A stretch of DNA of 64,000 bases from Alphaproteobacteria bacterium (GTDB lineage Bacteria > Pseudomonadota > Alphaproteobacteria > JAVJVX01): NCBI GenBank assembly GCA_040220875.1, contig JAVJVX010000003.1, forward strand, positions 21,353 to 85,352, given 5' to 3'. This document shows, one piece after another, positions 1 through 35,981 of this stretch. The notes below the pieces were generated by a model. The model did no database searches, was not told the origin of the DNA, and saw nothing but the letters and a program-made list of their open reading frames with translations. The position numbers and the translations under genes are program-made. Position 1 is the first letter of the stretch. Every line of letters starts with the position of its first letter.

Positions 1-518
1 GCACCTATACGCAGGACCTGTTCGGCAAGGACGACGAAACCTTCTTCGATGACATCGACCAGTTCCTTGAATTGCAGGAACAGGCCGTTAACGAGAAGGC
101 CGCGCAATTCGTGGCTGAAGGCAGAAAGGTTGAGATCACCAAAGCCTATTCGATCCCGAACTGGCAGTACCGGGATGCCGAAGACGGCGAGGATGGTGTC
201 ACGATCATCAACCTCTCCCCGCATGGCGACGTGGATATCCGCGAGAACGCGGTGTCCTACGAACTGGACCGTAAGACCGCGCAGGCGACGGCCGATACGC
301 CGGCAGCACCCTCGAAGCCGAAACCTTCCTACAGCGGGCCGCTGTGCCGCCACATGGCGTATCAAAAGAGCCTGGCCGTGCAATCTGTGCTGATGCGCAA
401 TCCGCGCGTTGCGAAGATCGTCGCGATCATCGACCGGCTCGGGCACATGAACGACGTGCACGAAAGCCATCCAAGCCTCAATCCGCAGATAGCGCTCCCG
501 AGCCAGACGACACGGTGA
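1..518 (+). CDS. C-terminal part of a ParB-like / ICE-associated conserved protein (5' end cut by window edge)
   Basis: Frame is open from nt 3 (TYTQDLFGKDDETFFDDIDQFLELQEQAVNEK...) to the stop at 518. Resemblance to large ParB-like proteins of integrative elements is from memory only. Confidence 0.35.
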   Translation, partial: TYTQDLFGKDDETFFDDIDQFLELQEQAVNEKAAQFVAEGRKVEITKAYSIPNWQYRDAEDGEDGVTIINLSPHGDVDIRENAVSYELDRKTAQATADTPAAPSKPKPSYSGPLCRHMAYQKSLAVQSVLMRNPRVAKIVAIIDRLGHMNDVHESHPSLNPQIALPSQTTR

Positions 519-714
519 AGGACGCCGATGGCGAGCGCTCTCCGGAATTCAAGATGCCCAAGGACGACGATTAGTCGGGACCGGCGGTCTGGCCGGGGTC
601 CGATCTAGGTCAGCGCAGTGCAATCAGAGGCAGAATGGCCTGCGGCGGTCTTTCGTTGCGGGTTCCCGATTTTTCCCGTATTTTCTCATAGGGACATGCG
701 TCGCAGGACACGTC

Positions 715-900
715 ATGCAGACAGACATTATGACCATCAAAGAGGTCGCGGAGTACCTGAAGCTGACTGAGAAAACCGCTTATCGGTTGGCGGCAGAGCG
801 GAAGATACCCGGCTTCAAGGTTGGTGGCGCCTGGCGGTTCCGGCGCTCCGAAATAGACGAGTGGATCGAACGGAAGACGAAAGAATCAACGAAGGGTTAG
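715..900 (+). CDS. Excisionase-family helix-turn-helix DNA-binding protein (MerR-superfamily HTH_17 / AlpA-like)
   Basis: 61-aa ORF. MTIKEVAEYLKLTEKTAYRLAAERKIPGFKVGGAWRFRRSEIDEWI matches the classic excisionase HTH pattern. Its stop is 3 nt before the SNF2 start. Confidence 0.8.
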   Translation: MQTDIMTIKEVAEYLKLTEKTAYRLAAERKIPGFKVGGAWRFRRSEIDEWIERKTKESTKG

Positions 901-903
901 GCC

Positions 904-3753
904 TTGATCACTGAGTACCACGCCAAACTGTTTGCTCATGAGCTGAGCAGGCGGCATTCCGTAGCGGATGCCGAGAAGCTGGCGGGCGCATTGCTGGATG
1001 CTCAGGTCGATCTCAATCCGCATCAGGTCGAGGCGGCCCTGTTCGCCTTCAAGTCTCCGCTTTCCAAGGGCGCCATTCTTGCTGACGAGGTTGGGCTCGG
1101 CAAAACGATCGAAGCCGGGCTTGTGCTCGCGCAGAAATGGACTGAGCGGAAGCGCCGCATTCTGGTTATCACACCGGCAAACCTGCGAAAGCAGTGGTCT
1201 CAGGAGATTGAGGAAAAGTTCTTTCTCCCGACGATCATCCTGGAGGCGAAAAACTACAACAAGATGGTGAAAGAAGGCGTTCGCCGTCCTTTCGAACAGA
1301 AAAGCCTCGTTATCTGCTCGTTCCAGTTTGCCGCGCGCCATGCTGACGAACTCATGGTCGTACCGTGGGACCTTGTCGTCATCGATGAAGCGCACCGGTT
1401 GCGCAACGTCTACCGCCCGGACAATAAAATCGGCAAGGCACTCAAAAATGCTCTCGTCAATGCGCCGAAGGTGCTGCTCACGGCGACGCCGTTGCAGAAT
1501 TCGCTGCTGGAGCTATACGGCCTCGTCAGCCTGATCGACGATTACGCGTTCGGCGATGTAAAGAGCTTCCGCTCCCAGTATGCGCGACTTTCAGGCGACG
1601 GGCAGTTCGACGAGCTCAAGAGCCGGTTACAGCCGGTTTGTCACCGGACGCTCCGGCGTCAGGTGCTTGAATATATCCGCTATACCAATCGTATCCCCGT
1701 TACGCAGGAATTCGTGCCGACGGAAGACGAGCAATCGCTTTACGACATGGTTTCGGATTACTTGCGCAGGCCGTCTTTGCAGGCACTTCCGTCTAGTCAA
1801 CGCACGCTCATGACGCTGATCATGCGTAAGCTGTTGGCGTCATCGACCTTCGCTATCGCTGGCGCGCTCGATACGCTGGCTCGCAAACTTGAGCGGCAGC
1901 TGCGCGACGACAAGAATTTGCGTGAGAAGCTGGAGCAGGAGCTGGCCGAAGACTATGAGGAATTCGATGAAATCGCCGATGAATGGTCCGACGAGGTGGA
2001 GGACCCTCAGCTCCTGAACGAAGAGGACATCGCGGCGATTGAAGCTGAAATCGTCGACCTTCGCGCGTTTCGCGACCTTGCGGTCTCCATATCCGAGAAT
2101 GCGAAGGGACAGGCCCTTCTCAGCGCCTTGCGGGCCGGCTTCGAAAAAACGGCTGAGCTTGGTGGCGCGGAGAAAGCCATTATCTTTACTGAATCCCGCC
2201 GCACCCAGGAGTATCTGGTTCGTCAGCTGTCGGAGAACGGGTACGAGGGCAAGATCGTCCTCTTCAACGGTTCGAATTCGGACCCGCAATCGAAGGCGAT
2301 CTACGAGGCTTGGCTCGAACGACATCGTGGTACGGATCGCGTCTCGGGTTCCCGCACGGCGGATATTAGGGCGGCGCTCGTCGACTATTTCCGCGAAGAA
2401 GCCTCGATCATGATCGCGACGGAGGCGGCGGCTGAAGGTATCAACCTTCAATTCTGTTCCATCGTCGTAAATTACGATCTGCCCTGGAACCCGCAACGCA
2501 TTGAGCAGCGTATCGGCCGTTGTCACCGCTATGGTCAGCGCTACGATGTGGTGGTCGTCAATTTTCTCAATAAGAACAATGCCGCCGATCAGCGCGTTTA
2601 CGAGCTTCTCGCTGAGAAGTTCCAGCTCTTCTCAGGCGTGTTCGGGGCTTCGGACGAGATTTTGGGTGCTATCGAATCCGGCGTCGAATTCGAGAAGCGC
2701 ATTGTCTCGATATACCAGAATTGTCGATCGACGGAGGAAATCGAGACCGAGTTCGAATTGCTCCGTACCGAGATGGACGAGAATATCGACGCGACGATGG
2801 AAGACACCCGTCGCAAGCTGCTCGAAAACTTCGATGCGGAAGTCCATGACCGTCTGAAAATCAATCTCGACAAGAGCAAGGAGTATATCGGGCGATACGA
2901 ACGCATGCTGTGGGCCGTGACCCAGCATGAGCTTCGCCAGCACGCCAAGTTTGACGATGAGTATCTGACGTTCACGTTGAAGCGTGTGCCCGATGGCGTG
3001 GATGTACCGTCCGGCGGATACGGGATCGCGAAACAAGGCTTGAGCGAACACCGCTATCGGTTAGGACATCCGCTGGCTCAGCACGTTGTTTCCAAAGCCC
3101 GAGACCGGTCGCTCAACGGCAAGACGCTGGTTTTCGACTATTCGGGTTGGCCCGCAAAGGCTGTGAGTGTCGAGCCGTTGGTCGGTCAATCCGGTGTCAT
3201 GGTTGCCGAGTGCTTGAGCTTCACGGGCTTCGATGAGCAGGACCATATTCTGTTTGCGGCTAAGGCCGATGACGGTCGCGACATCGAGCCGGAGGTCGCT
3301 CGCCGCCTGTTCGAGATGCCATGCCGGACAGAGGCAGGCGACATTGGAAACGAGCGTGCTCGACTGGACCCGGTTCTGGCGAAACGCGAACAGGAGCTGA
3401 TCGAAGAGCTGAAGCGACAGAATGCGCAGTGGTTCGCGGAGGAAAGCCAGAAACTGGAGAAGTGGGCCGAGGACAAGGTATTCGCTGCCGAGAAGGAGCT
3501 GTCCGATGCCAAGGCCCGGATACTCGAATTGAAGCGTGAAGCACGCGCCGTCGAGACGCCGGAACAGCAGCACCGTATCCAGACGCAGATACAGGAACTG
3601 GAGAAGTCCAAGCGACGGCTGAGGCAGCGCATCTTCGAGGTCGAGGACGAAATTATCGAGCAGCGGGACGGGATGATCACCGACCTGGAGGCTCGCATTC
3701 AGCAGCATACAAGCAAACAGGAGCTCTTCACGATCCGTTGGACGGTCGCGTAG
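904..3753 (+). CDS. SNF2/SWI2-family helicase with long C-terminal coiled-coil extension
   Basis: TTG start at 904. Motif I is ILADEVGLGKTIEAG, motif II is VIDEAHRLRN (DEAH at 1384-1395), and helicase-C motif VI is QRIGRCHRYGQ. About 380 aa of C-terminal extension ends in heptad-like KELSDAKARILELKREARAVE... Confidence 0.9.
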   Translation: MITEYHAKLFAHELSRRHSVADAEKLAGALLDAQVDLNPHQVEAALFAFKSPLSKGAILADEVGLGKTIEAGLVLAQKWTERKRRILVITPANLRKQWSQEIEEKFFLPTIILEAKNYNKMVKEGVRRPFEQKSLVICSFQFAARHADELMVVPWDLVVIDEAHRLRNVYRPDNKIGKALKNALVNAPKVLLTATPLQNSLLELYGLVSLIDDYAFGDVKSFRSQYARLSGDGQFDELKSRLQPVCHRTLRRQVLEYIRYTNRIPVTQEFVPTEDEQSLYDMVSDYLRRPSLQALPSSQRTLMTLIMRKLLASSTFAIAGALDTLARKLERQLRDDKNLREKLEQELAEDYEEFDEIADEWSDEVEDPQLLNEEDIAAIEAEIVDLRAFRDLAVSISENAKGQALLSALRAGFEKTAELGGAEKAIIFTESRRTQEYLVRQLSENGYEGKIVLFNGSNSDPQSKAIYEAWLERHRGTDRVSGSRTADIRAALVDYFREEASIMIATEAAAEGINLQFCSIVVNYDLPWNPQRIEQRIGRCHRYGQRYDVVVVNFLNKNNAADQRVYELLAEKFQLFSGVFGASDEILGAIESGVEFEKRIVSIYQNCRSTEEIETEFELLRTEMDENIDATMEDTRRKLLENFDAEVHDRLKINLDKSKEYIGRYERMLWAVTQHELRQHAKFDDEYLTFTLKRVPDGVDVPSGGYGIAKQGLSEHRYRLGHPLAQHVVSKARDRSLNGKTLVFDYSGWPAKAVSVEPLVGQSGVMVAECLSFTGFDEQDHILFAAKADDGRDIEPEVARRLFEMPCRTEAGDIGNERARLDPVLAKREQELIEELKRQNAQWFAEESQKLEKWAEDKVFAAEKELSDAKARILELKREARAVETPEQQHRIQTQIQELEKSKRRLRQRIFEVEDEIIEQRDGMITDLEARIQQHTSKQELFTIRWTVA

Positions 3754-3784
3754 GGACGGAAATTAGGCAGGAGAACCGAGTTAC

Positions 3785-6700
3785 ATGGCAAATATCGAGA
3801 AGCAGCGCGAACGCCTGATAGTCCTGTTGAAGGAGCTGTTCCAGCTAGACCAGCCCGACCTGGACTTCGGCTTCTATCGCATCATGCATGCGAAGGCCGG
3901 TCAGGTGAGCAAGTTTCTCGAAGAGGATCTGCTTGGCATCATCCGCGAGGCGTTCGGCGAAGCGGATGATGCGCGGATTGCCGAAGCCCGGGCAGCCTAT
4001 GAGGCGGCGAAAAAGCAGGCCGAGGAATTCGGAGCACCTGATCCGGATGCCGCGCCGAAGGTGAAGGAAGTCAAAGTTGCCTGGGACGTGGCGAAGGACA
4101 GCGGCAGCAACGAAGGCGACGTTTACGACCACCTGTACCGGTTTTTCGAGCGCTATTACGACAACGGCGATTTCATGAGCCGCCGGTACTTTGCGCGCGA
4201 AACCGACGGCAAGGCCGCACCCTACGCCGTTCCTTATGACGGGCGGGAGGTGTATCTGCACTGGGCGAACCGCGACCAGTACTACATCAAGACATCGGAA
4301 TATCTGAGCAACTTCACCTTCGACCCGACGCAGGCGACAGAGTTCAAGGCACATCATGGCGAGCTTTTCGACGACAAGCCGATCAAGGTGCACTGCCGCG
4401 TCGTCGAGGCGAGCGAAGGGGAGCACAACAACGTTAAGGCGACCGAGCAAACCGAGCGCTACTTCATCATCCACGATCCGGAACCGGTGAAGCTGGAAAC
4501 GGGGGGGACCGGGGCACCGGAGCTTGTCATGCAGTTCGAATATCGCCCCGACGCTGAGAAGACGGGGCAGGAAGGGACTTGGCGGAAAAAGCGCCTGTTG
4601 GAGGCAGCTGAGAAAGTGAAGGGATTGCTGCCGAGCCTAGATGGCGGCGGTGACTACGTGACGGCGCTCATGACGCCGGCGCCCACGGAAGCGGAGAAGG
4701 ATCGAACGCTGCTGGAGAAATATCTGGCGCAGTACACTGCCCGCAACACCATGGACTATTTCATACACAAGGACCTGGGCGGGTTCCTGCGGCGCGAGCT
4801 CGACTTCTACATCAAGAACGAGATCATCCGGCTGGACGACATCGACTCCGCCGATGCGCCGCGCGTGGAGAGCTATCTTGCCAAGGTCAAGGTGCTGCGG
4901 CGCATCGCGCAGCATTTGATCGATTTTCTGGCGCAGTTGGAAAATTTCCAGAAGAAGCTGTGGCTTAAGAAGAAGTTTGTCGTCGATACGCAATACTGCA
5001 TCACGCTCGATCGTATTCCTGAGGAGTTCTATCCGGAGATCGCGGCCAACGACGCGCAGCGGAGAGAATGGGTTCGGCTTTTTGCGATTGACGACTTGTC
5101 CGATTACTCAAGCACACTCAATGCCGCCTTTCTAAAGGCCAATACCAGCTTGACAGTCGACACAGCACTTTTCGGAAACGATTTTCGAGACAGGGTAATC
5201 AGTGCGCTTGAGGATATTGAGAACGAGACGAAGGGTGTTCTCGCTCACTCAGAAAACTTTCAGGCGGTACGCCTCTTTGAAGCAAAATATAGAAAATCAG
5301 CTTCCGCAATCTATATCGACCCACCTTACAACGCAAAATCGAGTGAGATTGCTTACAAAAATACTTATAAGCATTCCTCTTGGCTTTCCTTCATGCAGGA
5401 TCGCATACACTCCGGTGCAAGCCTTTTGCGGGATGACGGCGTCCATGCTGTTGCGATTGACGAAGTCGAACAGGAAGTTCTGAGCATCATATTGGATCAA
5501 GTTCTTAATGACATGAAGACGGTCGTCCTTCCGATCGTTAGCAATCCTCGTGGCCAGCAGGGTAAGAATGTTTCAGCTGTCCATGAATATATGATCCTCT
5601 CCTATCCCTCTGACGCGAAGAAATACTTGGCTGACACCCCGAAAAACGAGGTGGATTCGAGGACACTACGGGACTCAGGGACTGAGTCAGATCGTACTGA
5701 TGCCAAGACTTGCTTCTATCCATTTATCGTGCGGAATGGCGAGATTGTGGAAATTGGGCAGGTTCCACCAGATGATTTTCATCCCACCGGCGCGAATGTT
5801 GTTTTGCCGAATGGCGATATCGAGGTCTGGCCGCTCACGGACGGAGGTGACGAGAAGAAATGGCGGTATGGTTGGGATACTGTACCTCAAATTCTTGAAA
5901 AACTTGAGCCAAAGTCTGGAAGAAACTCGATCCAGATCATCTTTCACAAAGATACGGGGACAATGAGAAGTCTGTGGGTCGGGGCACAGTACGATGCCAG
6001 TGAGTATGGCACAAAAGTTCTACAAAAGATGCTAGGGGAAGAGCTGGCAAAAGAATTTTCTTATCCGAAGTCTATAAATACTGTGCGTGAAGCTCTTGAG
6101 GTTCAGCTCAATGGGCAATCCAACGGATTGGTGGTCGACTACTTTGCTGGCTCTGGAACGACTGGACATGCCGTTATTGAGATAAACAGAAAAAGTGAAG
6201 AAAATGACATTCGGTACGTTCTTGTCGATATGGGGTCCTATTTTGATGTCGTATTGAAGCCACGCATTCAGAAGTCAATATACTCTTCAGATTGGGATGG
6301 CGGAAAGCCGCTATCAAGAAATGGCGTTAGCCAATGTATAAAGTACGTCAGGCTTGAAACATATGAAGACGCCTTAAACAATTTGGCATTCCGGCCGGCC
6401 CCGTCTACAGCACAGGCCTCGCCAGACTTCGCGCGTGACTACATGCTCCGCTACTGGCTCGACTTTGAGTCCAAGGGTAGTCCGTCACTCCTGAACATCG
6501 AATGGTTCGATGATCCAACAGCCTACAAGCTAAAGATCAAGAAGCCCGGCACGGACGAGTATGTCGAGAAGGCCGTCGATCTGGTCGAGACATTCAATTG
6601 GTTGATCGGGCTGCATGTCGAGCATCTGGATCGCTGGCGTGGTTATGACGCTGCCTTCAAGCGAGAGGCTGATCCCGAACTGCCAGGCGATACCAATACG

Positions 6701-7036
6701 CGCCTGATTTTGGACGGTGCGCTTAAGGAGACCGACGACGGCGCATGGCGTATCCGCAAGGTCGAAGGCTATAGGCTGCGCACTCCCGGCGACCAGAACG
6801 ACCGTGAGAAGGTGCTCGTTATCTGGCGCAAGCTGACGGACGATCTGGAGCAGGACAATCTTGTGCTGGACGAGTGGTTCAAGAAATGCCGCTTGTCCAC
6901 ACAGGATACCGAGTTCGACGTAATCTACGTCAACGGCTCCAACAATCTTCCCAATTTGCGCAAGGACGAAGAGACCTGGAAAGTCAGGCTGATCGAAGAA
7001 GCCTTCCATCAGGCCATGTGGGATGTGGAGGGTTAA
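3785..7036 (+). CDS. Very large (1083 aa) beta-class N6-adenine/N4-cytosine DNA methyltransferase, Type III Mod-like core with long N- and C-terminal extensions
   Basis: SD AGGAGA at 3769-3774. Motif IV IYIDPPYN (DPPY 5318-5329) precedes motif I VVDYFAGSGTTGHAV (6143-6163), which is the beta-class order. About 440 aa N-terminal and about 220 aa C-terminal regions have no motif I recognise. Confidence 0.9.
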   Translation: MANIEKQRERLIVLLKELFQLDQPDLDFGFYRIMHAKAGQVSKFLEEDLLGIIREAFGEADDARIAEARAAYEAAKKQAEEFGAPDPDAAPKVKEVKVAWDVAKDSGSNEGDVYDHLYRFFERYYDNGDFMSRRYFARETDGKAAPYAVPYDGREVYLHWANRDQYYIKTSEYLSNFTFDPTQATEFKAHHGELFDDKPIKVHCRVVEASEGEHNNVKATEQTERYFIIHDPEPVKLETGGTGAPELVMQFEYRPDAEKTGQEGTWRKKRLLEAAEKVKGLLPSLDGGGDYVTALMTPAPTEAEKDRTLLEKYLAQYTARNTMDYFIHKDLGGFLRRELDFYIKNEIIRLDDIDSADAPRVESYLAKVKVLRRIAQHLIDFLAQLENFQKKLWLKKKFVVDTQYCITLDRIPEEFYPEIAANDAQRREWVRLFAIDDLSDYSSTLNAAFLKANTSLTVDTALFGNDFRDRVISALEDIENETKGVLAHSENFQAVRLFEAKYRKSASAIYIDPPYNAKSSEIAYKNTYKHSSWLSFMQDRIHSGASLLRDDGVHAVAIDEVEQEVLSIILDQVLNDMKTVVLPIVSNPRGQQGKNVSAVHEYMILSYPSDAKKYLADTPKNEVDSRTLRDSGTESDRTDAKTCFYPFIVRNGEIVEIGQVPPDDFHPTGANVVLPNGDIEVWPLTDGGDEKKWRYGWDTVPQILEKLEPKSGRNSIQIIFHKDTGTMRSLWVGAQYDASEYGTKVLQKMLGEELAKEFSYPKSINTVREALEVQLNGQSNGLVVDYFAGSGTTGHAVIEINRKSEENDIRYVLVDMGSYFDVVLKPRIQKSIYSSDWDGGKPLSRNGVSQCIKYVRLETYEDALNNLAFRPAPSTAQASPDFARDYMLRYWLDFESKGSPSLLNIEWFDDPTAYKLKIKKPGTDEYVEKAVDLVETFNWLIGLHVEHLDRWRGYDAAFKREADPELPGDTNTRLILDGALKETDDGAWRIRKVEGYRLRTPGDQNDREKVLVIWRKLTDDLEQDNLVLDEWFKKCRLSTQDTEFDVIYVNGSNNLPNLRKDEETWKVRLIEEAFHQAMWDVEG

Positions 7037-7039
7037 GTC

Positions 7040-10000
7040 GTGGCTGCGCGCAAAAAGATCAAACCGTTACCATTCAGTCACAAGCTCGTCCTAAACCAGT
7101 GGATTGTGAGCCTGTTCGGTTTCGACCCGATCAAGGATCACAAGGACGGAAAGCGGACGTTGCGGCCCATGCAGCCGCTGGCGAGCGTGGTCAAGGATGC
7201 GCAGGAGGGCATGACGTCCGAAAACCTGCACCACTTTTACAAGGCGCTGGATATCAACCTTCAGTCATCGGCCAAGATCACGCGGGCCGACCTGCTGCGA
7301 TACGAACACAACATCGTTAGCCACACGTTGGCGATCAACGAGAAGCGCGACCGGCCCATCGTCTGGAAGTATTACCAGTGGCTCTCGCTGCTGTTTGCGG
7401 AAATCTATCTGGACCGGTTTTTCGCGGACCGCGAGGCGTTGCTTGAGGCGCTTAACGCCTATGTCGCCGATTTCAACACCTACTGGACCGACGAGGGATA
7501 TGAGACCGGTATCACACCATACGAACTTGATGACCTGAACAAGCTCTGCCTCCAGAACGCGACGGGCTCGGGCAAGACGTTGCTGATGCACGTTAATTTC
7601 CTTCAATTCCGCCACTACGCGTCTTCGTCGCGGTTCAAGCACGACCTTACCCGGACGATCCTCATTACGCCGAACGAAGGCCTCTCGGTTCAGCATGCCC
7701 GTGAGATGAAAGGGAGCGATATCACGGCTGCTAGGTTGCTGACGGACAGCGGCGATTTGTTGTCTTCTGGCAAGAGCGGTTTGCGGCAAGTGGACTACAC
7801 CGAGATTACCAAACTGGGCGATACGGATGGTCCGAACGTCATCGCCACGCGCAATCTTGGGGACAAGAACCTGCTTCTGGTCGATGAGGCGCACCGGGGC
7901 ATGGGGAGCCAGGAAGAACGCGGCTGGTTTCGAAGTCGTGCGCGCCTGTCGGAGAAGGGATTCGTGTTCGAGTATTCCGCGACCCTGAAGGAGGCTGTCA
8001 CAGCCGCTAAACGCCCGGAGATCGAGGCGTCATACGCAAAGACGATCCTATTCGATTATTCGTACCGGTATTTCTACGAGGACGGCTACGGCAAGGACTA
8101 CCGCATCTTCAATCTGCCGCGCACCTTCAGCGAGCTGGAGTTCGCATATCTGACAGCCTGCCTGATGTCGTTCTACCAGCAGCTCAAGCTGTATGAGGAC
8201 AATCAGGGCCTTTACGCGCCCTACAACATCGAGAAGCCGTTGTGGGTGTTCGTGGGATCAAGCGTTACCAAGGCAACGGGGACCAAGGCCGAAAAGGCGA
8301 CCGTCTCCGATGTGGGAAAGATCCTCGCGTTCATCGCCCGGTTTCTGAAGAGTGATGCTGCGTCATCGTCCGAGATAGACCGCATCCTGACAGGCAACGC
8401 TAAAAAGACCGGTCTCCTTGACGAAAGCGGGGGAGACATCTTTGCGGGGGGCTTCATCTATCTTCAGCAGCTGATGCTGCGAGAAGGCTGGGAAGCAACT
8501 GACCTCTATCGCGATATTCTTGCCAAGCTGTTTCAGAACAAAGCCGGTGGTGAGCTCTCGATCGCGCGGATCAGAGGCGACGAGAACGAGATCATGCTTC
8601 GCGTTGGACAGGCGGACGTACCGTTCGGCCTGATCAATGTCGGCGATGCGTCGGGCCTCGCAAGCCATATTGCCGAACAGAGTTTTGACAACGTGGTCGT
8701 GCATGACTCCGAGTTCGCTGAAACCATGTTCGGCCAAATCAACCTGTCCAGTTCGCCGTTAAATCTGCTGATCGGATCGAAGCGGTTTGTCGAAGGGTGG
8801 GATTGCTGGCGCGTGAGCACGCTCGGTCTGATGCATGTCGGGAAGAGCGAGGGAGCGCAGATTATTCAGCTGTTCGGACGGGGTGTTCGACTGAAAGGCT
8901 ACGATTGGACGTTGCAGCGGAGCGGTTTTGCGACTCCGACCCACCAGCCGGATTTCATTCAGTATGTGGAAACGCTCAACGTCTTCGGTATCGAGGCCGA
9001 TTTCATGGAGCGATTCCGGAAGTTCCTTGAGGAAGAAGAGCTGCCTAGAAACGACAAAAAAGACATCTTCAGGGTCCCGCTGAACGTAACCTACGAATTC
9101 GGCAAGCGATTGAAGGTGCTGCGGCCCCGAAAAAAACGCGACGACGGGCGGGAGTACGATTTCAAAAGGGACGGCGCCGTTCCTGCGCTCGGGATCATGC
9201 CCGAAAAAATCCGTCAGAAGGGCGTCGAGATCGACTGGTATCCCCGTATCCAATCACTTGAATCGAAGAAGGGTGTGAAGCTCGGATCGAAGGAAGAGAC
9301 TACTTTCCGGGACGGCCATCTCGCGTTCCTGGATTACGACGATCTGTTTTTCCGGCTGGAGAAATTCAAGCGGGAGAGGACCTGGCACAATTTCAACATT
9401 ACCAAGCAACAACTGTCCGAACTGCTCGCCGATAGGACCTGGTACAAGCTGGTTGTGCCGTCGGGAAAGATGGACTTTTCAGACTTCTCGAACGTCAGCC
9501 TGTGGCAGGAGATGGCAGCCGAGCTTCTGCAAAAATTCGCCGAAGAGTATTATAATTATTGCAAGGCGGCGTTCATCGAGCCGCGGCTTGAGTTGCGCGA
9601 AATCGAGCCCAATGATGGCAGCCTCCCGCAGGAGGACGAATATCAGCTCATCGTCGATGCCAATGAGTTGGCGTTGATAGGCGATATCCAGACACTCACG
9701 AAGGAGATTGCCGCCCGCAAGACAGGCATCCTTCGGGCCGGCGACCTAAAGGGGTGTCTTTTCAGTGCGCATCTCTATGAGCCGGTCCTCCATACGGCGA
9801 AGGGCAGTAAAATCCAGATTGCGCCGGTCTCGTTGAACGAGAGCGAGTTCCAGTTCATCGATGACCTTCGTATATGTCTGGAGCGCGAGCAGGCTCGGCT
9901 GGAGAACGAAGGTATAGAGATTTTCCTTCTGCGTAACAAAAGCCGGGGCAGGGGTATCGGGTTCTTCGAGGCGGGCAATTTCTATCCCGACTTCCTTTTG

Positions 10001-10288
10001 TGGCTCGTGAAAGACGGGCGTCAGTATCTCTCTTTCGTTGAGCCTCACGGATTGCAGCACGAAGGCCCCGGCCACAAGAAGATCGAATTCCATCGGGTGA
10101 TCAAGGATATCCAGGCTAGGCTGGCGAGCGAGAACGTCGTTTTGAATAGCTTTATCGTTACGCCAACCCGGTTCGGGAAACTGAACTGGGGCAAGTCCAT
10201 CGACGATCTGATGGATATGCATGTGTTCTTCATGGAGGATCAGAGGGACACCTACGTTCCTGAAATTCTGGAACGCATGCAGGCATAG
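7040..10288 (+). CDS. Res-like SF2 (DEAH) helicase with putative C-terminal PD-(D/E)xK-type nuclease
   Basis: GTG start is 3 nt after the methylase stop. Walker A is NATGSGKTLLMH (7564-7578), DEAH is LLLVDEAHRG (7883-7894), and motif VI-like is QLFGRGVRL. C-terminal FYPDFLLW...LSFVEPHG (9986-10048) resembles a restriction-endonuclease core. Confidence 0.8.
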   Translation: MAARKKIKPLPFSHKLVLNQWIVSLFGFDPIKDHKDGKRTLRPMQPLASVVKDAQEGMTSENLHHFYKALDINLQSSAKITRADLLRYEHNIVSHTLAINEKRDRPIVWKYYQWLSLLFAEIYLDRFFADREALLEALNAYVADFNTYWTDEGYETGITPYELDDLNKLCLQNATGSGKTLLMHVNFLQFRHYASSSRFKHDLTRTILITPNEGLSVQHAREMKGSDITAARLLTDSGDLLSSGKSGLRQVDYTEITKLGDTDGPNVIATRNLGDKNLLLVDEAHRGMGSQEERGWFRSRARLSEKGFVFEYSATLKEAVTAAKRPEIEASYAKTILFDYSYRYFYEDGYGKDYRIFNLPRTFSELEFAYLTACLMSFYQQLKLYEDNQGLYAPYNIEKPLWVFVGSSVTKATGTKAEKATVSDVGKILAFIARFLKSDAASSSEIDRILTGNAKKTGLLDESGGDIFAGGFIYLQQLMLREGWEATDLYRDILAKLFQNKAGGELSIARIRGDENEIMLRVGQADVPFGLINVGDASGLASHIAEQSFDNVVVHDSEFAETMFGQINLSSSPLNLLIGSKRFVEGWDCWRVSTLGLMHVGKSEGAQIIQLFGRGVRLKGYDWTLQRSGFATPTHQPDFIQYVETLNVFGIEADFMERFRKFLEEEELPRNDKKDIFRVPLNVTYEFGKRLKVLRPRKKRDDGREYDFKRDGAVPALGIMPEKIRQKGVEIDWYPRIQSLESKKGVKLGSKEETTFRDGHLAFLDYDDLFFRLEKFKRERTWHNFNITKQQLSELLADRTWYKLVVPSGKMDFSDFSNVSLWQEMAAELLQKFAEEYYNYCKAAFIEPRLELREIEPNDGSLPQEDEYQLIVDANELALIGDIQTLTKEIAARKTGILRAGDLKGCLFSAHLYEPVLHTAKGSKIQIAPVSLNESEFQFIDDLRICLEREQARLENEGIEIFLLRNKSRGRGIGFFEAGNFYPDFLLWLVKDGRQYLSFVEPHGLQHEGPGHKKIEFHRVIKDIQARLASENVVLNSFIVTPTRFGKLNWGKSIDDLMDMHVFFMEDQRDTYVPEILERMQA

Positions 10289-10331
10289 GTTTCGTTGGAA
10301 AACGAAAAACCCCCGCACGATGGCGGGGGTT
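10289..10331. terminator. Tandem hairpins between convergent genes (likely bidirectional terminator)
   Basis: First hairpin is GTTTCGTT-GGAA-AACGAAAA. Second is the perfect 9-bp stem AACCCCCGC-acgatg-GCGGGGGTT (10308-10331). Confidence 0.6.
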
Positions 10332-10353
10332 CCGAACGCGTCGTTGAATTGTC

Positions 10354-10647
10354 TCAAGCTGCGCTGCGGTCTTCCTTCGGCGTCACCCGCTGGCCTTCCA
10401 GCCAACGGTTGAACTCGGCCCTGTCGATGTAGACGCGGCCACCGACTTTGATCAGTGCCTGATCCAGGCCGTTTGTATCCGAATGGAAGATCCACCAGCG
10501 GAGCTTGCTCTCCGTTACGAACGGTGCCTCGGCAGCGAGCTGCCGGACCGTGCGTAACTGCTGGTAATCGACCAGTGGACTGTCCTTTGTCCTTGTCCAA
10601 AAAATAGCCAGAGACAATGCCCCCGAAGGGGCACTTAATAGATTCAA
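10354..10647 (-). CDS. AlpA/excisionase-like HTH protein (candidate recombination directionality factor); start uncertain
   Basis: C-terminal part FVTESKLRWWIFHSDTNGLDQALIKVGGRVYIDRAEFNRWLEGQ fits the excisionase HTH pattern. It lies downstream of int and the DUF4145-like ORF on the same strand. The TTG start at 10647 is only one option. Confidence 0.6.
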   Translation of the reverse strand: MNLLSAPSGALSLAIFWTRTKDSPLVDYQQLRTVRQLAAEAPFVTESKLRWWIFHSDTNGLDQALIKVGGRVYIDRAEFNRWLEGQRVTPKEDRSAA

Positions 10648-10712
10648 TTAAAGCCCTCAAAACTCAATAGGAAAATCTCAGAAAAATAGAGTTTTCAAAC
10701 TAAATCAGTAGT

Positions 10713-11249
10713 TTACCTCTCCACCCCGTAGAGTTCACTGATCAATTCGGTGGCTAAGGCCACGCCGCTGACGGCCATTGTAGGGTCGTAGATGCTCTGG
10801 CGGTCCGCATGGCTCGCCTGGTTTCTCAACTGTCGCGCGGCAGACCATTGTTCGAAGCGCGCGGTCGACATTATGCCCTGATCACGGAGCCATTTCAGAG
10901 CGTCGGCGTATTGCTTTAATCGGTTGGGCGCGCCTGATGATGCGCATTTGTGCATCACCGCCGCCTCAAGCACGCGATACAGCTGCTCGCTTCCGAGCGT
11001 GTAGAGTGGATAGAAGAAGCACCCGTAGCAGAGGACGCCCTGGGCGACTTCGAACATATTGCGGATGTCTTCCGGTACAGACGGTTCGAGCTCATGCTCC
11101 AGGATCAGCGCCGTCCAATCTTCCTTTGTGATCCCGTGGGTTGTCCCGTCCGCTGCGACCCGGACGATGTGGCGTGCGGTTTCATCGGGCGTTAGCCAGT
11201 TATCCGTGGTGAGCTTCTTGAACAGCCGCCTGTCGGTTTCACTCGTCAT
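10713..11249 (-). CDS. Hypothetical protein, possibly DUF4145-like
   Basis: 178-aa ORF whose ATG overlaps the integrase stop (ATGA at 11246-11249). AARQLRNQASHAD resembles the R-N-x-x-x-H signature I associate with DUF4145 (memory, unverified). Confidence 0.5.
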   Translation of the reverse strand: MTSETDRRLFKKLTTDNWLTPDETARHIVRVAADGTTHGITKEDWTALILEHELEPSVPEDIRNMFEVAQGVLCYGCFFYPLYTLGSEQLYRVLEAAVMHKCASSGAPNRLKQYADALKWLRDQGIMSTARFEQWSAARQLRNQASHADRQSIYDPTMAVSGVALATELISELYGVER

Positions 11250-12361
11250 GAAAACAGCTTGTCGTTCATCAGCTCGACCACGTCCTTGGTGTGGTCCTCG
11301 GAGAGGTGTGAATAGCGTTTCACCATTTGAAGCGTTCGGTGCCCAAGGACCTGGGCAATCTCCAATTCGGACGCGCCATTCATCGCGAGGTAGCTGGCCG
11401 TACTGTGCCGCAGGTCATGAAAACGGAAATCCTCTATCCCGGCCGCTTCACGGGCATTTTCCCAAGATTTCCGAAAATCCATTGGAGCCTGGCCATCTTT
11501 TCGCGGGAATACCCATTGCTTGGCCGGAGGGGTTTTTGCATCGGCGTATCGCGTCTTGACGTCTTTGATATGCGTCTTAAGGAGCTCGGCCAGGTGTGAG
11601 ACCACCGGCACCGCTCGCGTATCCTTATTCTTCGTGTCTCGGAGTACAGCGTACCCGCGTTTCAGGTCAATATCATCAATGGTTAGCTTTAGAATTTCAC
11701 CCTTCCGGGCGCCCGTCGATATCGCGAACACAACGATCGGGTAAAGAAGCTTGTTGGCGCTAGCCTTGCATGCCTTTAGCAGATCGGCGCGTTCTTCGTC
11801 GCTGAGATAGCGAACACGCTCGTTTCGAATGTTGATAATGCGGTTGACGCCCTCAACGGGATTGCTCCCGATCAACCGCCAGCGCTTGGCGTGTTTGAAA
11901 AGCAGCTCCAGGGTGTCCCGGTAGAGTTTGATCGTTTTGCGGCTCTTGGGCTTTGGCGGCTTTTCTCCATCTTTGAGTTGAATGCGGCTATCGCCTTCAC
12001 CGGCCAGCTTTCGCAGGCGCTCTGAGATATGCTCGGGTTTGACGAAGGAGAGGGCGTGCTTGCCGAGCTCCGCTTTCCAGAACTTTAGGTAGGTTTCTTC
12101 CACCCGCTGTGTCGACAGGGATTTCTCGGGCAACACCTCCGCCCGATAGCGGTCGATTACGTCCTTGACGGTTGTTCCCCGCGCGGCAGAGACGACGTTT
12201 TCAAACTGCCCGCTCTTGATGTCCTCTTCGGTCTTGTGAGCCCACCGGCGAGCGTCGGTGAGTCTCTTGAACGACCGGCGCTGAATTGGAAATCCGTTAA
12301 CGCGCACTACGGCTCTATAGACTGTGCCTTTCTTGCGTTCCCTTTTCTCAATCGTCGCCAC
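11246..12361 (-). CDS. int: Tyrosine recombinase / phage-type integrase
   Basis: GTG start. C-terminal catalytic region is FRFHDLRHSTASYLAMNGASELEIAQVLGHRTLQMVKRYSHL (R..H-x-x-R..Y). N-terminal SAM-like arm is TVYRAVVRVNGFPIQRRSFK. Confidence 0.95.
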   Translation of the reverse strand: MATIEKRERKKGTVYRAVVRVNGFPIQRRSFKRLTDARRWAHKTEEDIKSGQFENVVSAARGTTVKDVIDRYRAEVLPEKSLSTQRVEETYLKFWKAELGKHALSFVKPEHISERLRKLAGEGDSRIQLKDGEKPPKPKSRKTIKLYRDTLELLFKHAKRWRLIGSNPVEGVNRIINIRNERVRYLSDEERADLLKACKASANKLLYPIVVFAISTGARKGEILKLTIDDIDLKRGYAVLRDTKNKDTRAVPVVSHLAELLKTHIKDVKTRYADAKTPPAKQWVFPRKDGQAPMDFRKSWENAREAAGIEDFRFHDLRHSTASYLAMNGASELEIAQVLGHRTLQMVKRYSHLSEDHTKDVVELMNDKLFS

Positions 12362-12404
12362 CTTTCCAACCCTTTCAACTCGTTAAAAACCTGAAGTGCC
12401 CACT

Positions 12405-12433
12405 TTGGGGACGTTTTGGGGACACTTGGGGAC
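12405..12433 (+). repeat. Three phased direct repeats TTGGGGAC (candidate arm-type integrase/RDF binding sites or int operator)
   Basis: TTGGGGAC occurs at 12405-12412, 12416-12423 and 12426-12433, a 10-11 bp period. The sites lie 44-72 nt upstream of the int start. Confidence 0.5.
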
Positions 12434-12539
12434 AAAAAAATATGGATATTCCCAACAATTGCCAACAACCAATATGTCGACAAACCATTGAAAAATATGC
12501 AAGAAAATATTGACGCTTGTTGACGTTTTTAGAGATACG

Positions 12540-12590
<51 letters not shown>

Positions 12591-12597
12591 ATAAATC

Positions 12598-12631
12598 AAC
12601 GGGTTAAGCGAAAGCTTAGCCCGTTTTTTTA
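12598..12631 (+). terminator. Rho-independent terminator of the (disrupted) tRNA-fMet gene
   Basis: AACGGGTTAAGC-GAAA-GCTTAGCCCGTT forms a 12-bp stem with one G:U pair. It is followed by a T run. Confidence 0.75.
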
Positions 12632-13005
12632 TGTATTTTACACTCACACAGTCCTTACACATAATCAGGCGCCATTAATCCGGAGGTGCCCTGTTCGTGC
12701 AGAATGTCCTTGCCACCTATGTTGAACGTGACCTGGGCGGCAAGCTTGTTGCGGTTGGTAACAAGCACGGGGGAGGGGACAGCGGTTAAAATTCCATGTG
12801 ATGAAATGAACGGTCCGCCAATGCTATGCTGTCGGCGTTTGCAGCCCGTGTGGCTTTCATCAGGACTGGATTCGGTACTCACCTGGCGAATGGCGGGTCG
12901 TGCCGATTGCTGATCGCGTGCTCGGTATCCGCCAGCGTGGATAGTTTCCTGACCGTGCATTCGGCCCTGATGTCCAAACTTTGGTAGCAGCCGAGGGTTG
13001 ACACA

Positions 13006-13977
13006 ATGCAAATATCTTTTCTTAAAGGCCGGCACAGTCTGATTCCCATAGCCCTAGTATGCGTACTGATAGTCGCCGGTTCCATAGTCGTCGGCTCTCA
13101 ATGGGTCTGGATTGCTAACGCATCTGCTCCCATAACCGAGTGCGACAGGCTTGCGGCACACCCTCTCGACAAGCATGCCGTTTCTCCAGGCATCAATACG
13201 GACAATCTCGATGCGAGCAAAGCCGTTGTCGCGTGTCGGGTGGCCGTCAAAGAATTCCCGGACGAACGTCGTTTCAAATACCAGTTGGCGCGTGCGTTGG
13301 CGAAAGACCGGACAACCGCTAAAGAGTCATTTTCTATTCTGCTCAATCTTGATCCGACGAACTATCCCGCGGCCGCCACCACTCTTGGCTACCTGTATGC
13401 CGATGGCCTTGGCGTGGAGAAAAATAATACTGAGGCCGTCAAATGGTACCGCAAGGCAGCCGAGCAGGGTTATGCCGGCGCGCAGGCCAACCTTGGAGTC
13501 ATGTACGAGAATGGCCGCGGCGTGAAGAAGAGTAGCACTGACGCTGTGACGTGGTTCCGAAAAGCCGCAGAGAAAGGCGATGCCAGGGCACAAAATAATT
13601 TGGCTATTCAGTATATCAATGGCCAAGGTGTTGAAAGGAATTTAGCGGAGGCCCTGAAGTGGATGCGTATGTCTGCTGATCAGGGATACAAAGAAGCTCA
13701 AACAAATTTGGTAAAGATGAGGAGCGCCGCCTCTTCACAAGGCTCTCTTCCCTCTATTCGCCGGCTCGAAGACATCTTGAACATGGATTCGGACGACGCC
13801 CTCGTTACAGCCGGTGGAATTATTGCTGCATTTGTCGGGTTAGCTTTTGCTATTGATGCGGCTGACGGAAAGATCCACGACGAAGAAGATTCTAGCGGCT
13901 ACAGTGGAAGCTACGAGGATTTCAAGAGTAAGCTAGAATTCCAAGAATGCATGACGCGTGGCACATCTTGCTGGTGA
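13006..13977 (+). CDS. Sel1-repeat (SLR/TPR-like) protein with N-terminal membrane anchor and a second hydrophobic segment near the C-terminus
   Basis: It has repeated A..WYRKAAEQGYAGAQANLGVMYENGRGV-type units, about five in total. GC is lower than in the neighbouring chromosome. Confidence 0.85.
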   Translation: MQISFLKGRHSLIPIALVCVLIVAGSIVVGSQWVWIANASAPITECDRLAAHPLDKHAVSPGINTDNLDASKAVVACRVAVKEFPDERRFKYQLARALAKDRTTAKESFSILLNLDPTNYPAAATTLGYLYADGLGVEKNNTEAVKWYRKAAEQGYAGAQANLGVMYENGRGVKKSSTDAVTWFRKAAEKGDARAQNNLAIQYINGQGVERNLAEALKWMRMSADQGYKEAQTNLVKMRSAASSQGSLPSIRRLEDILNMDSDDALVTAGGIIAAFVGLAFAIDAADGKIHDEEDSSGYSGSYEDFKSKLEFQECMTRGTSCW

Positions 13978-14084
13978 ACCGCCCCAGGATTGCCCGGGGC
14001 TTCATCTTCTGAGAAGAAGGAACCATTGCCTTTTGAACGGGAGCCGCCGCCGTGTCCTCACACCGCCATTTCCTTCTTACGGCC

Positions 14085-15552: not shown

Positions 15553-16269
15553 ATGAGTAGTGCCGCCCTCGCATTTCTGGCCGGGCTGGTCACGATACTC
15601 AATCCCTGCGTGCTGCCGATCCTGCCGGTCCTGGTCGGATCGGCCGCGAGCGAGAGCCGGTTCGGCCCGGCGGCGCTGGCGGCCGGGCTGGTACTCTCGT
15701 TTTCCACCTTCGGCCTTCTCATTATCGCCTTCGGATTTTCCATCGGCCTCGATGGCGAGCTCGTCCGGAACGGCGCCGCCTTCCTCCTGATCGCCGCCGG
15801 CGCGCTGCTTCTCGTGCCTCGGGCGCAGGCGGCCTTCGCGAGCGCGACGGGGCCGCTCGTCAGTGGTGGCAACCGGTTGCTGGGCCGCGTCTCGGGCGAC
15901 GGCATGGCCGGGCAGTTCGCCATTGGCGCGCTGCTCGGGATCGTCTGGGCGCCCTGCGTCGGGCCGACCCTGGGCGTCGCCATCGCCGCCGCCAGCCGGG
16001 GCGAAAACCTCATCGGCGCGTTCTTCATCTTTCTCGTCTTCGGCTTCGGCGTGGCGGCGTCCATCCTCGCCTTCGCCTACGGCTCGCGCAAGGCGCTGGC
16101 CGCCAGGAAGGACCGGCTTCAGGCGGTGGCACGCTACGGCAAACCGCTTTTCGGCGGCGCGCTGGTGCTGGTGGGGGCAATGATCCTGACCCGGCTGGAC
16201 AAGGCGGTCGAGGCCTGGATGCTGGAGGCGATGCCCCGCTGGCTGGTCGAGCTCACGACGCGCTTCTGA
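15553..16269 (+). CDS. ccdA: Cytochrome c biogenesis CcdA/DsbD-type thiol-disulfide transporter
   Basis: It has conserved membrane Cys motifs ILNPCVLPILPV and VWAPCVGPTLG, and about 6 TM segments. Confidence 0.85.
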   Translation: MSSAALAFLAGLVTILNPCVLPILPVLVGSAASESRFGPAALAAGLVLSFSTFGLLIIAFGFSIGLDGELVRNGAAFLLIAAGALLLVPRAQAAFASATGPLVSGGNRLLGRVSGDGMAGQFAIGALLGIVWAPCVGPTLGVAIAAASRGENLIGAFFIFLVFGFGVAASILAFAYGSRKALAARKDRLQAVARYGKPLFGGALVLVGAMILTRLDKAVEAWMLEAMPRWLVELTTRF

Positions 16270-16292
16270 GGGGACGCCGCGGACAAAAATAC

Positions 16293-16321
16293 GGCGGGAG
16301 GGACGTTTCGTCCCTCCCGCC
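16293..16321. terminator. Bidirectional terminator hairpin between ccdA and katG
   Basis: Perfect 12-bp stem GGCGGGAGGGAC-gtttc-GTCCCTCCCGCC. Confidence 0.7.
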
Positions 16322-16348
16322 GGAAACCGCTCAAGGTCCCCGCCCGCG

Positions 16349-18595
<2,247 letters not shown>

Positions 18596-18657
18596 TTATA
18601 GTCCACAAAAACTTTGGGGTAGGCCGGAAAAAATCCGACCGCCAATCGGGGGGTATC

Positions 18658-19779: not shown

Positions 19780-20465
19780 TGGTTGCCCCTCCTGAGCCGT
19801 TTCTCGAGCAGCATCATGCTCAGAATGACCAGGAAGGCGAAGACCACCAGCCCGCCGGCCAGGACATGCGCCTCGGTCCAGCGCAGCGTCTCGACGAAAT
19901 CAAAGATCGCGACGGACAGGACCCTGGTTTCGCCCGGGATGTTGCCGCCAATCATCAGCACGACGCCGAATTCACCCACCGTGTGAGCGAAGCCGAGCAC
20001 CGCGCCCGTCAGGAAACCCGGGCGCGCCAGCGGTACGGCCACGGTCCAGAACCGGTCCCGGGGGGATGCACCGAGCGTGGCGGCGACCTCGAGGGGTCTG
20101 GTGCCGATGGCCGCGAAGGCGTTTCGAAGTGGCTGGACGACGAATGGAAGGGAATAGACGACCGAGCCCGCCACCAGCCCCTCGAAGGTAAAGGCGAGAG
20201 AGCGGGCGCCATAAAGCCCGGCAACCCAGCCGCCGGGGCCTTGCGGACCGAGCAAGATCAAAAGATAGAAGCCGAGAACCGTCGGCGGCAGTACCAGCGG
20301 CAGCGCCACCACGGCGGCCACGGCTTCTTTCCAGCGCGCCTTTGATTGTGCCAGCCACCAGGCGATCGGGGTCGATACGATGAGCAACAGGAGTGTCGTG
20401 ACCGAGGCCAGCTCGAGAGTGAGCCGAATGGGCGACCAGAGTTCCGCGAAATCAAGATCGGGCAT
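19776..20465 (-). CDS. modB: Molybdate ABC transporter permease
   Basis: 229-aa permease with an EAA-loop-like [20 protein letters not shown]. It lies between modA and modC. Confidence 0.9.
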
Positions 20466-20474
20466 GATGGTTCG

Positions 20475-21269: not shown

Positions 21270-21346
21270 GTTAGCGCCGGCGCGCCCCGCATGACAGAGG
21301 ACCATTGCGGGCGCCTTTCGCCCATGGTTCCGGCCGACTCGGAGAC

Positions 21347-29590: not shown

Positions 29591-29654
29591 GGGTGCCTCG
29601 CCATGTTGTTCCGGGTCTCGCGCGCCGCCGCGCCCGGTCGGGAAAAGATATCGC

Positions 29655-30287: not shown

Positions 30288-30321
30288 GCCTGGCCTGTTC
30301 TGCCGGGCCTGTCCGGCCCTT

Positions 30322-31496: not shown

Positions 31497-31503
31497 CCCG
31501 GCC

Positions 31504-35978: not shown

Positions 35979-35981
35979 GAC

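Follow-up and report, generated by a model that had tools for sequence, protein, structure and literature searches.

An SNF2 ATPase gene upstream of Type III-like Mod and Res genes: a candidate restriction-modification cassette on an alphaproteobacterial mobile element

What kind of system is encoded by an operon in which the gene of an SNF2-type ATPase precedes those of a giant DNA methylase and a giant helicase-nuclease? The question is raised by a locus of an alphaproteobacterium, located on the + strand at positions 715-10288 of a 64,000-nt stretch of contig JAVJVX010000003.1 (assembly GCA_040220875.1); this stretch is called the window below, and its numbering is used throughout. The locus consists of four co-directional open reading frames (ORFs): ORF1 (715..900), for a 61-aa helix-turn-helix (HTH) protein; ORF2 (904..3753, TTG start), for a 949-aa RapA/DrmD-like SNF2 ATPase; ORF3, or mod (3785..7036, ATG start), for a 1083-aa methylase; and ORF4 (7040..10288, GTG start), for a 1082-aa Res-like protein. 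Their junctions are tight, with TAG at 898-900 and a 3-nt spacer before TTG 904, TAG at 3751-3753 and a 31-nt spacer with a Shine-Dalgarno sequence (AGGAGA) before ATG 3785, and TAA at 7034-7036 and a 3-nt spacer before GTG 7040. The reading frames and junctions are as an earlier interpretation, made from the sequence alone (hereafter, the sequence-only reading), had described them. In our opinion, the locus very likely encodes a defence of the restriction-modification (R-M) type and is probably an SNF2-assisted, Type III-like R-M cassette, with the SNF2 protein as a dedicated motor subunit. That this protein is a functional part of an R-M system seems likely by analogy with other systems, while any specific role ascribed to its motor is tentative at best.

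ORF3 contains a Pfam N6_N4_Mtase domain (PF01555) at aa 508-815, in which the DPPY motif at residue 512 (nt 5318-5329) precedes FAGSG at residue 787 (nt 6143-6157), the arrangement of the beta class. Its sequence matches in the PDB are Mbo45V (1e-24), the EcoP15I Mod (7.5e-18) and the Mod of entry 6k0w. A Foldseek comparison of the AlphaFold2 model (pLDDT 75.5) also brought Type III Mods to the top of the list (6k0w, 4zcf and 7dsu, E 4e-17 to 1e-14), with CcrM and the beta-class methylases of Type II systems ranking below them; the list comprised methyltransferase chains only, all of them, at 177-616 residues, shorter than the 1083-aa query. Among the PADLOC models, MTase_III PDLC03646 matched aa 10-949 at 660 bits, and since this model is 1057 positions long, the giant Mod already has its place among annotated Type III enzymes. 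That ORF3 is a Type III-style Mod, a beta-class N6-adenine methylase as judged by sequence and predicted fold, is strongly supported.

Within ORF3, a methyltransferase and target-recognition module (aa ~450-880, 5132..6424), identified by Pfam, PDB and Foldseek matches, is flanked by an N-terminal domain (aa 1-449, 3785..5131) and a C-terminal domain (aa ~881-1083, 6425..7036), both constant in the family. Neither the N-terminal ~450 aa nor the C-terminal ~200 aa gave a Pfam match, and both show many invariant columns in the family alignment. The different behaviour of these parts became visible when the window was compared with its four closest relatives (loci L010, L016, L017 and L032), whose SNF2 and Res proteins are 81-87% and 84-86% identical to those of the window. 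Identity of the Mod proteins amounts to 80-98% in the N-terminal domain, falls to 16-54% within aa ~450-850, and rises again to 60-78% over aa 851-900 and 84-100% over aa 901-1050; for aa 1-400 and 901-1050 together, the range is 80-100%. Such a profile strongly supports an exchange, as one unit, of the whole predicted methylase and recognition module, beyond a mere recognition loop, between otherwise near-identical cassettes, as would be expected for the diversification of sequence specificity. No simple-sequence repeats of the kind linked to phase variation were found in mod. The swap represents a clean natural domain exchange that could be copied experimentally, and it suggests that the specificity of the system might be reprogrammable.

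Pfam assigns ORF4 to ResIII/DEAD. The ATPase motifs GSGKT (residue 176, nt 7565-7579), DEAH (residue 282, nt 7883-7894) and SAT (residue 313) are followed by QLFGRGVR at aa 610-617, a QxFGRGxR motif, and the C-terminal part carries the nuclease-type motif E936 ... P983-D984 ... E1001-P-H1003 (P983-H1003 at nt 9986-10048). All of the motifs that the sequence-only reading had named are indeed there, and the Pfam domains agree with them. In 44 diverse homologs of ORF4, the motifs of superfamily 2 (SF2), E936, P983-D984 and the (D/E)-P-(K/H) signature are invariant; the last was recovered in 77 of the 80 genome loci, from many phyla, that we gathered for comparison (DxK in 39, ExH in 31, DxH in 7). 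Lysine and histidine alternate clade-specifically at the third residue of this motif, the window belonging to the ExH type. In PADLOC, ORF4 matched REase_III models only, scoring 572 bits with PDLC03654, a long and family-specific model; NCBIfam gave no match. Overall, it is strongly supported that ORF4, at the level of motifs only, is laid out as a Type III Res, its SF2 ATPase lying in the N-terminal part and its PD-(D/E)xK-type motif in the C-terminal part. Two variants of the Res architecture were also observed. Plasmids of Enterococcus faecium (H29-H33) carry small stand-alone ORFs, annotated as hypothetical and 39.7% identical to ORF4 aa 912-1080; thus, the C-terminal nuclease-type domain also exists as an independent protein. 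The 1260-aa Res homologue of a Leptospiraceae metagenome-assembled genome (MAG; L085:9944-13726) ends in a Peptidase_S24 (LexA/UmuD-like) domain.

The SNF2 ATPase, ORF2, combines the Pfam domains SNF2-rel_dom and Helicase_C and has GLGKT at residue 64 and DEAH at residue 161. RapA was the best-matching solved structure (1e-35). According to hhalign, the start of ORF2 aligns at RapA residue ~129, so that the N-terminal domains of RapA are absent from ORF2; this comparison, made between the SNF2 family and Escherichia coli RapA, reported the first RecA lobe alone. PADLOC placed DrmD first (PDLC02619, 699 bits over aa 29-667, against 169 bits for HmaA), and the NCBIfam models DISARM_DrmD_b and DISARM_DrmD gave 700 bits (aa 29-679 only) and 261 bits, their cut-offs being 950 and 610. 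Judging by these matches, ORF2 appears RapA/DrmD-like in its helicase core only. Beyond Helicase_C, a coiled-coil tail of ~380 aa had been proposed. The length is correct, but the coiled coil seems to be shorter: aa 570-667 still align to the DrmD models, aa ~680-810 form a conserved globular segment of a family-specific C-terminal region, and only aa ~815-935 look coiled-coil-like, as judged by eye. The ORF2 family is conserved over its full length across phyla, and neither Pfam nor PADLOC matched a nuclease domain in ORF2.

Is the SNF2 gene a regular companion of the Mod/Res pair? The Res family comprises 2585 clusters (50% identity) at E<1e-3 and 804 at E<1e-30; lengths of ~1020-1130 aa prevail among the 150 clusters with the best scores. 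With 804 clusters at the stricter threshold, the locus can hardly be the rare oddity for which it had been taken. For counts of gene content, we used those 60 of the 80 genome loci in which Res is preceded by 7 kb of sequence or more. Mod comes before Res in 59 of them, and a full-length SNF2 gene, with strand and gene order kept, in 55; the SNF2 homologues of these 55 loci align over aa 1-948 with 45-87% identity. The gene neighbourhoods of related genomes thus bear out the co-conservation of SNF2 with the Mod/Res pair, and the three-gene layout is widespread in bacteria. The layout HTH-SNF2-MTase-DEAD is also found on IncF plasmids of E. coli and Klebsiella, where Res identity is down to 34%. 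An E. coli/Klebsiella homologue of the cassette is located at 29496-39248 of pEC316_2 (NZ_CP018955.1).

Some observations on individual carriers may be added here. In Conchiformibius steedae (NZ_CP059562.1), the SNF2 gene (19145-21982) follows Res (15744-19118), so gene order is not absolutely fixed. On the Hymenobacter plasmid pHsw1, an SF1 RecD-like helicase gene and a hypothetical gene stand between SNF2 (201560-204454, upstream of L007) and Mod. The full plasmid cassette was found in 2 of 5426 complete E. coli genomes. A search of E. coli returned 170 matching records from 157 genomes, and 10 of the 12 listed matches correspond to a 298-bp piece of the Res gene with 99.7% identity (L006 ~10916-11213, i.e., query 8324-8621 of L006:2593-12345). 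This piece, annotated as a DUF1158 protein, looks like a widely spread remnant.

A second view of the partnership is obtained from the SNF2 side. Full-length SNF2 homologs, tail included, were present in 46 plasmid records, as compared to 25 records with a full-length giant Res. Nine further plasmid lineages without giant Res have the SNF2 gene followed by a standard Type III Mod and Res: Rhizobium (74% SNF2 identity), Cupriavidus (64%), Salmonella IncFIB plasmids, Deinococcus, a planctomycete, Roseomonas, Ketogulonicigenium, Paracoccus and Sphingopyxis. In these lineages, SNF2 identity is 41-74% over the full length, Mod has 527-685 aa and Res 898-996 aa, and an HTH gene precedes SNF2 in four of the nine. 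PADLOC recognised their pairs as MTase_III 03634 with REase_III 03647 or as 03636 with 03648, and the EcoP1I Res itself matches REase_III 03647 at 343 bits. Since these pairs fall into two other families, the SNF2 family is a dedicated companion of Type III Mod/Res pairs from no fewer than three families; that it is found almost only before Type III-type Mod/Res pairs of three families is strongly supported. The divergent Mod and Res of the window therefore occupy the slot of Type III enzymes, which supports the Type III reading. The sequence-only reading had treated a giant Mod with an SNF2 partner as an oddity for a Type III system. Both features are real, but they are independent of each other, because the same SNF2 family precedes Mod and Res proteins of ordinary size in the nine lineages. 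Likewise, we dropped the idea that the additional domains of the giant Mod are a docking platform for SNF2, given that the same SNF2 tail goes with ordinary-sized Mods.

The cassette is also a place where other genes accumulate. Roughly 28 of the related loci contain extra genes in the SNF2-Mod or the Mod-Res gap, among them AAA_21 with DUF4276 (9-12 loci), Fic/DOC (7), a YhcG/DUF1016 nuclease (4) and GmrSD (3), as well as PDDEXK_3, Schlafen/AlbA_2, RhuM and a Zeta toxin; plasmid relatives embed DUF262, Abi, AIPR and VapC. Examples are loci L021, L022, L024, L025, L031, L037, L044, L049, L057, L123, L124, L126 and L127. The operon is a hotspot at which defence genes become embedded. Embedded toxin or nuclease genes of defence and the swapping of specificity modules are both typical of R-M operons, and both lend support to a role in defence.

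Taken together, these data allow us to sketch how the cassette might work. Mod would methylate adenine within a short, probably asymmetric site and so mark the host DNA as self; at unmodified sites on incoming DNA, it would load Res, which would communicate over long distances along the DNA at the expense of ATP and then cleave. The SNF2 protein would be a dedicated third motor subunit, required for efficient restriction and not for methylation, which might translocate on double-stranded DNA and thereby link Mod-bound sites or clear away bound proteins. ORF1 would be an optional transcriptional regulator. For the steps ascribed to Mod and Res we lean on Type III enzymology and on the MANTIS system, and for SNF2 as a third motor on the analogy with ArmA of ARMADA and with drmD plus drmMI of class 1 DISARM.

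A number of observations weigh against this scenario. Methylation, cleavage and the need for SNF2 are all inferred for this family. On the side of Res, the window protein has histidine at the position of the catalytic lysine present in most family members; neither phmmer nor a hidden Markov model of the 44-sequence family found a match for ORF4 in the PDB; hhalign with the EcoP1I Res aligned the DExH..SAT patch alone, at 2.6% probability; and the AlphaFold2 model of ORF4, built with 56 close homologs, had a mean pLDDT of 62, with both RecA-like lobes below 50, and was discarded. A Foldseek search of the PDB with this poor model returned nothing at E<0.1, helical-repeat noise only. Moreover, canonical EcoP1I and EcoP15I function without a third subunit (Mod2Res1-2). 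On the side of SNF2, Mod and Res occur without it in 3 of the 60 genome loci, and in a divergent sample from IMG/VR, Mod was present at all 16 loci and SNF2 at 8. A UvrD-PD-(D/E)xK helicase-nuclease sits in the SNF2 position in Priestia and in the Leptospiraceae MAG, and Hymenobacter has a RecD-like helicase besides SNF2. At depth, the identities of SNF2 and Res to the window proteins are weakly correlated (Spearman 0.19), and the modules recombine.

With these facts in mind, one might suppose that Mod and Res are a self-sufficient Type III-like R-M system and that SNF2 is a separable accessory, which might be dispensable, have a regulatory task or come into play, as a back-up, only against certain phages or anti-restriction proteins. 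The two-gene relatives, the other helicases that fill the SNF2 slot and the loose coupling of SNF2 and Res divergence all favour this explanation, as do the unrelated defence genes often inserted between SNF2 and Mod. That one SNF2 tail is shared by systems with three unrelated Mod/Res families speaks against a tight, co-evolved protein interface. The idea of a strict SNF2-Res co-evolution, which we had considered, is unsupported at a Spearman coefficient of 0.19. On the other hand, in all lineages that we inspected, SNF2 stands before Type III-type pairs, with strand and gene order unchanged; the spacers are often 8-55 nt long (31 nt, with the Shine-Dalgarno sequence, in the window); ORF2, unlike HmaA, lacks a match to a nuclease domain; and the analogous SNF2 partners are essential in ARMADA. 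We therefore regard a separable accessory as rather unlikely and keep to SNF2 as a probable motor subunit of the system.

It is tempting to go one step further and to suppose that SNF2-assisted Type III restriction is a distinct, widespread and unrecognised class of R-M systems, in which a RapA-like translocase on double-stranded DNA is obligatory and alters the finding or licensing of targets. We consider this generalisation doubtful. If it were true, the motor would drive directional communication between Mod-bound sites or strip off protective proteins; the system would then defeat forms of evasion that succeed against classical Type III enzymes, for instance through single-orientation sites or through anti-restriction proteins that coat DNA or mimic it; and the giant Mod and Res of the window would represent one of the Type III lineages, three at the least, into which this motor was recruited. 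Whatever the outcome, the locus offers a convenient object of study. SNF2 motors beside methylases are known from class 1 DISARM, ARMADA, BREX type 3 and DUF499 systems, where their role is largely unknown; here, the same kind of motor comes in a minimal three-gene operon and is joined to a very well understood long-range machinery, that of Type III R-M. Relatives without the motor, relatives with another helicase and EcoP-like pairs with the same motor provide natural controls, so the function of SNF2 can be approached directly by genetics and single-molecule experiments. Annotation pipelines probably split such loci into "RM type III" and an orphan or incomplete DISARM, which may inflate the counts of partial DISARM systems. 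The cassette also travels on integrative and conjugative elements (ICEs) and on clinical plasmids of Klebsiella, E. coli and Salmonella, and it may shape gene flow.

Turning to the first gene of the operon, the protein of ORF1 (MAD1/excisionase-like) matches Pfam HTH_17 at 7e-20 and passes the NCBIfam model antiphage_MADS1 with 87.7 bits (cut-off 80). An HTH gene was found upstream of SNF2 in just 6 of 50 related loci, a frequency that rules it out as a core component, contrary to the initial view of the operon. According to the authors of the MADS study, MAD1 is a widespread regulator shared with R-M systems, and deletion of mad1 had little effect on defence. ORF1 is probably an accessory, optional transcriptional regulator of the operon. 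A tandem direct repeat, TTCCCGTATTT x2, lies at 663-684, 30-50 nt upstream of the ORF1 start, where it and the tail of a terminator-like hairpin overlap; a role as operator for the HTH protein is possible.

That hairpin (637..664, + strand, a 12-bp stem followed by a T-run) ends the upstream ParB-like gene and marks the left boundary of the operon. The right boundary is marked by a GC-rich hairpin at 10306..10333, between the ORF4 stop and a convergent downstream ORF; it has an 11-bp stem with 7 GC pairs, was scored on the minus strand and begins 18 nt past the ORF4 stop. Inside the operon, the hairpin scan gave nothing above chance. In a promoter scan of 400-11300, hits were no more numerous than in shuffled sequence, and the stretch upstream of ORF1 had none. 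Further downstream is the tyrosine integrase of the carrying element (11246..12361, - strand; Pfam Phage_integrase, 8e-32), which lies outside the system. GC content is 0.49-0.59 over positions 1-14000 and ~0.65 beyond, with a step at ~14 kb; upstream on the source contig there are DUF2779 and ParB-like (ParB_N/HTH_ParB) genes, and the remainder of the window holds housekeeping genes (KatG, a methyl-accepting chemotaxis protein, ribonucleotide reductase and FadE/FadB-like genes). Low GC content, the integrase and the bracketing hairpins agree with the view of the sequence-only reading that the locus is one operon carried as mobile-element cargo. Hyphomonas relatives of the cassette lie inside ICEs, beside genes for ArdA, DUF736, a relaxase and a Trb type IV secretion system, and other relatives are found on conjugative plasmids. 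The cassette is probably the cargo of an integrated, probably conjugative, element.

Three minor features of the island deserve a short comment. A 178-aa ORF at 10713-11249 (- strand), between Res and the integrase, has weak, sub-threshold matches of the HEPN type (HepT-like 0.004, DUF4145 0.005) and may be an accessory gene of the island, for a small toxin or another defence function. Short tandem direct repeats, TTGGGGACAC x1.9 and ATTCCCAACA x2.1, occur at 12416-12468, just past the 5' end of the integrase gene, and may be candidate recombinase-binding or attachment-site elements. No tRNA genes were found across the whole window.

Such surroundings bring to mind another explanation, namely that the cassette serves the establishment of a conjugative element or anti-restriction, protecting or processing the transferred DNA in its new host in the manner of P1 DarB or ArdC and not restricting foreign DNA. 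The cassette of the window indeed lies between a ParB-like gene and an integrase, the relatives in Hyphomonas adjoin ArdA and transfer genes, and the annotation of P1 DarB is that of a methyltransferase-helicase with a role in defence against restriction. However, the cassette also resides on non-mobilizable plasmids and at chromosomal sites without nearby transfer genes, the PD-(D/E)xK-type motif is kept throughout the Res family, canonical EcoP-like Res proteins occupy the same slot, and the relatives embed toxin and nuclease genes of defence and swap their specificity modules. An anti-restriction function is, in our estimate, very unlikely, and the candidate R-M cassette remains our preferred interpretation.

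How does this candidate cassette relate to systems that already have a name? With Type III R-M (EcoP1I, EcoP15I, Mbo45V) it shares the order of mod and res within one operon, a beta-class N6-adenine Mod whose nearest relatives in sequence and fold are Type III Mods, and a Res that combines an SF2 ATPase at the N-terminus with a PD-(D/E)xK-type motif at the C-terminus. Type III enzymes hemimethylate an asymmetric site, and their cleavage needs ATP and two inversely oriented unmodified sites. PADLOC puts the Mod and Res of the window under Type III models, and members of the SNF2 family stand in front of genuine EcoP-like pairs as well. The differences are of size and content. The window Mod is ~440-470 aa longer than the EcoP15I Mod chains (612-644 aa); the window Res is ~110 aa longer than the EcoP1I Res (970 aa) and has no significant sequence similarity to it beyond the helicase motifs; and, unlike EcoP1I and EcoP15I, the layout includes a third gene, for the SNF2 ATPase, upstream.

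Class 1 DISARM resembles the locus in having the gene of an SNF2 helicase immediately before that of an adenine methylase, in the DrmD model being closest to the helicase core of ORF2, and in being a methylation-based defence carried on islands. Deletion of drmD together with drmMI nearly abolishes the protection of class 1 DISARM against phage Nami. The locus might thus be seen as a degenerate or minimal class 1 DISARM or ARMADA, in which DrmD and the methylase were kept and DrmABC or YprA were lost or replaced. PADLOC and NCBIfam indeed both give DrmD as the best name for ORF2, and the order of SNF2 and then methylase is common to class 1 DISARM and ARMADA type II. Against this, ORF2 falls below the DrmD_b cut-off with its helicase core alone matched, and its C-terminal 280 aa match no DrmD model; DrmMI is a PglX-like methylase of pfam13659, unlike the Mod-like PF01555 enzyme of the window, and the DrmMI model is absent from the 20 PADLOC matches of ORF3. 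Pfam and PADLOC gave no match to DrmA, DrmB (DUF1998) or DrmC (phospholipase D, PLD) in ORF4 or in the neighbouring ORFs within 49-13977, nor was YprA found. Since the intact trio is conserved across phyla, it is no remnant, and we hold this explanation to be highly improbable and largely refuted. The sequence-only reading had spoken of a hybrid of Type III-like and DISARM-like parts; the Type III-like half stands, whereas the link to DISARM was overstated, the helicase core alone being shared and the methylase being of PF01555.

ARMADA consists of ArmA (SNF2), ArmB (a PglX-like methylase), ArmC (a YprA helicase-nuclease) and, in some cases, ArmD, and thus likewise combines an SNF2 protein, a methylase and an SF2 helicase-nuclease. 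ArmA is RapA/BrxHII-like, its Walker A and Walker B mutants abolish defence, and the order of type II is also SNF2, methylase, helicase. Compared with ARMADA, ORF4 has no YprA/DUF1998/DrmA match, ORF3 is not PglX-like, and a fourth, GajB-like gene is absent. Hma, MANTIS/Gao_RL and BREX type 3 are similar to the locus in pairing an N6-adenine methylase with a helicase-type partner, and in them, too, defence genes are found embedded. The partner of the methylase belongs to the Swi2/Snf2 family in BREX type 3 and BR systems (PMC12839542). HmaA depends on its NOV_C nuclease domain, and MtsD of MANTIS has been described only as a helicase-nuclease. In MANTIS, asymmetric sites are hemimethylated, the methylase directs the helicase-nuclease, and a swap of the target-recognition region switches specificity; MANTIS is the best mechanistic analogue of our system. 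In contrast to Hma and MANTIS, whose core is a DUF499 AAA+ ATPase (HmaC/MtsA), and to BREX type 3, the locus has no DUF499/BrxC ATPase, DUF3870, PglZ or PLD; eight ORFs scanned within 49-13977 gave no match of the DUF499 type, and ORF3 matched neither the HmaB nor the PglXI model of PADLOC. The model of MADS mandates MAD6, MAD7 and MAD8; ORF2-ORF4 match no mad model, ORF1 alone being matched (MAD1).

DISARM, ARMADA, Hma and the DUF499 BR systems, MANTIS/Gao_RL and MADS were each rejected on a defining feature. The earlier judgement that the locus fits neither DISARM nor Hma holds, with no DrmA/DrmB/DrmC, DUF1998, PLD or DUF499 found, and the PADLOC models already available recognise the parts of the cassette. 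In the literature searched by full text, we found neither a name nor an experimental test for a trio of SNF2 with Type III Mod and Res, and the attachment of SNF2 to Type III enzymes, including EcoP-like ones, appears to be unreported there. The theme of an SNF2 motor joined to a methylase and a helicase-nuclease is itself a familiar one, and the role that we propose for the SNF2 ATPase would parallel that of the SNF2 partners of methylases in class 1 DISARM, ARMADA, BREX type 3 and DUF499 systems.

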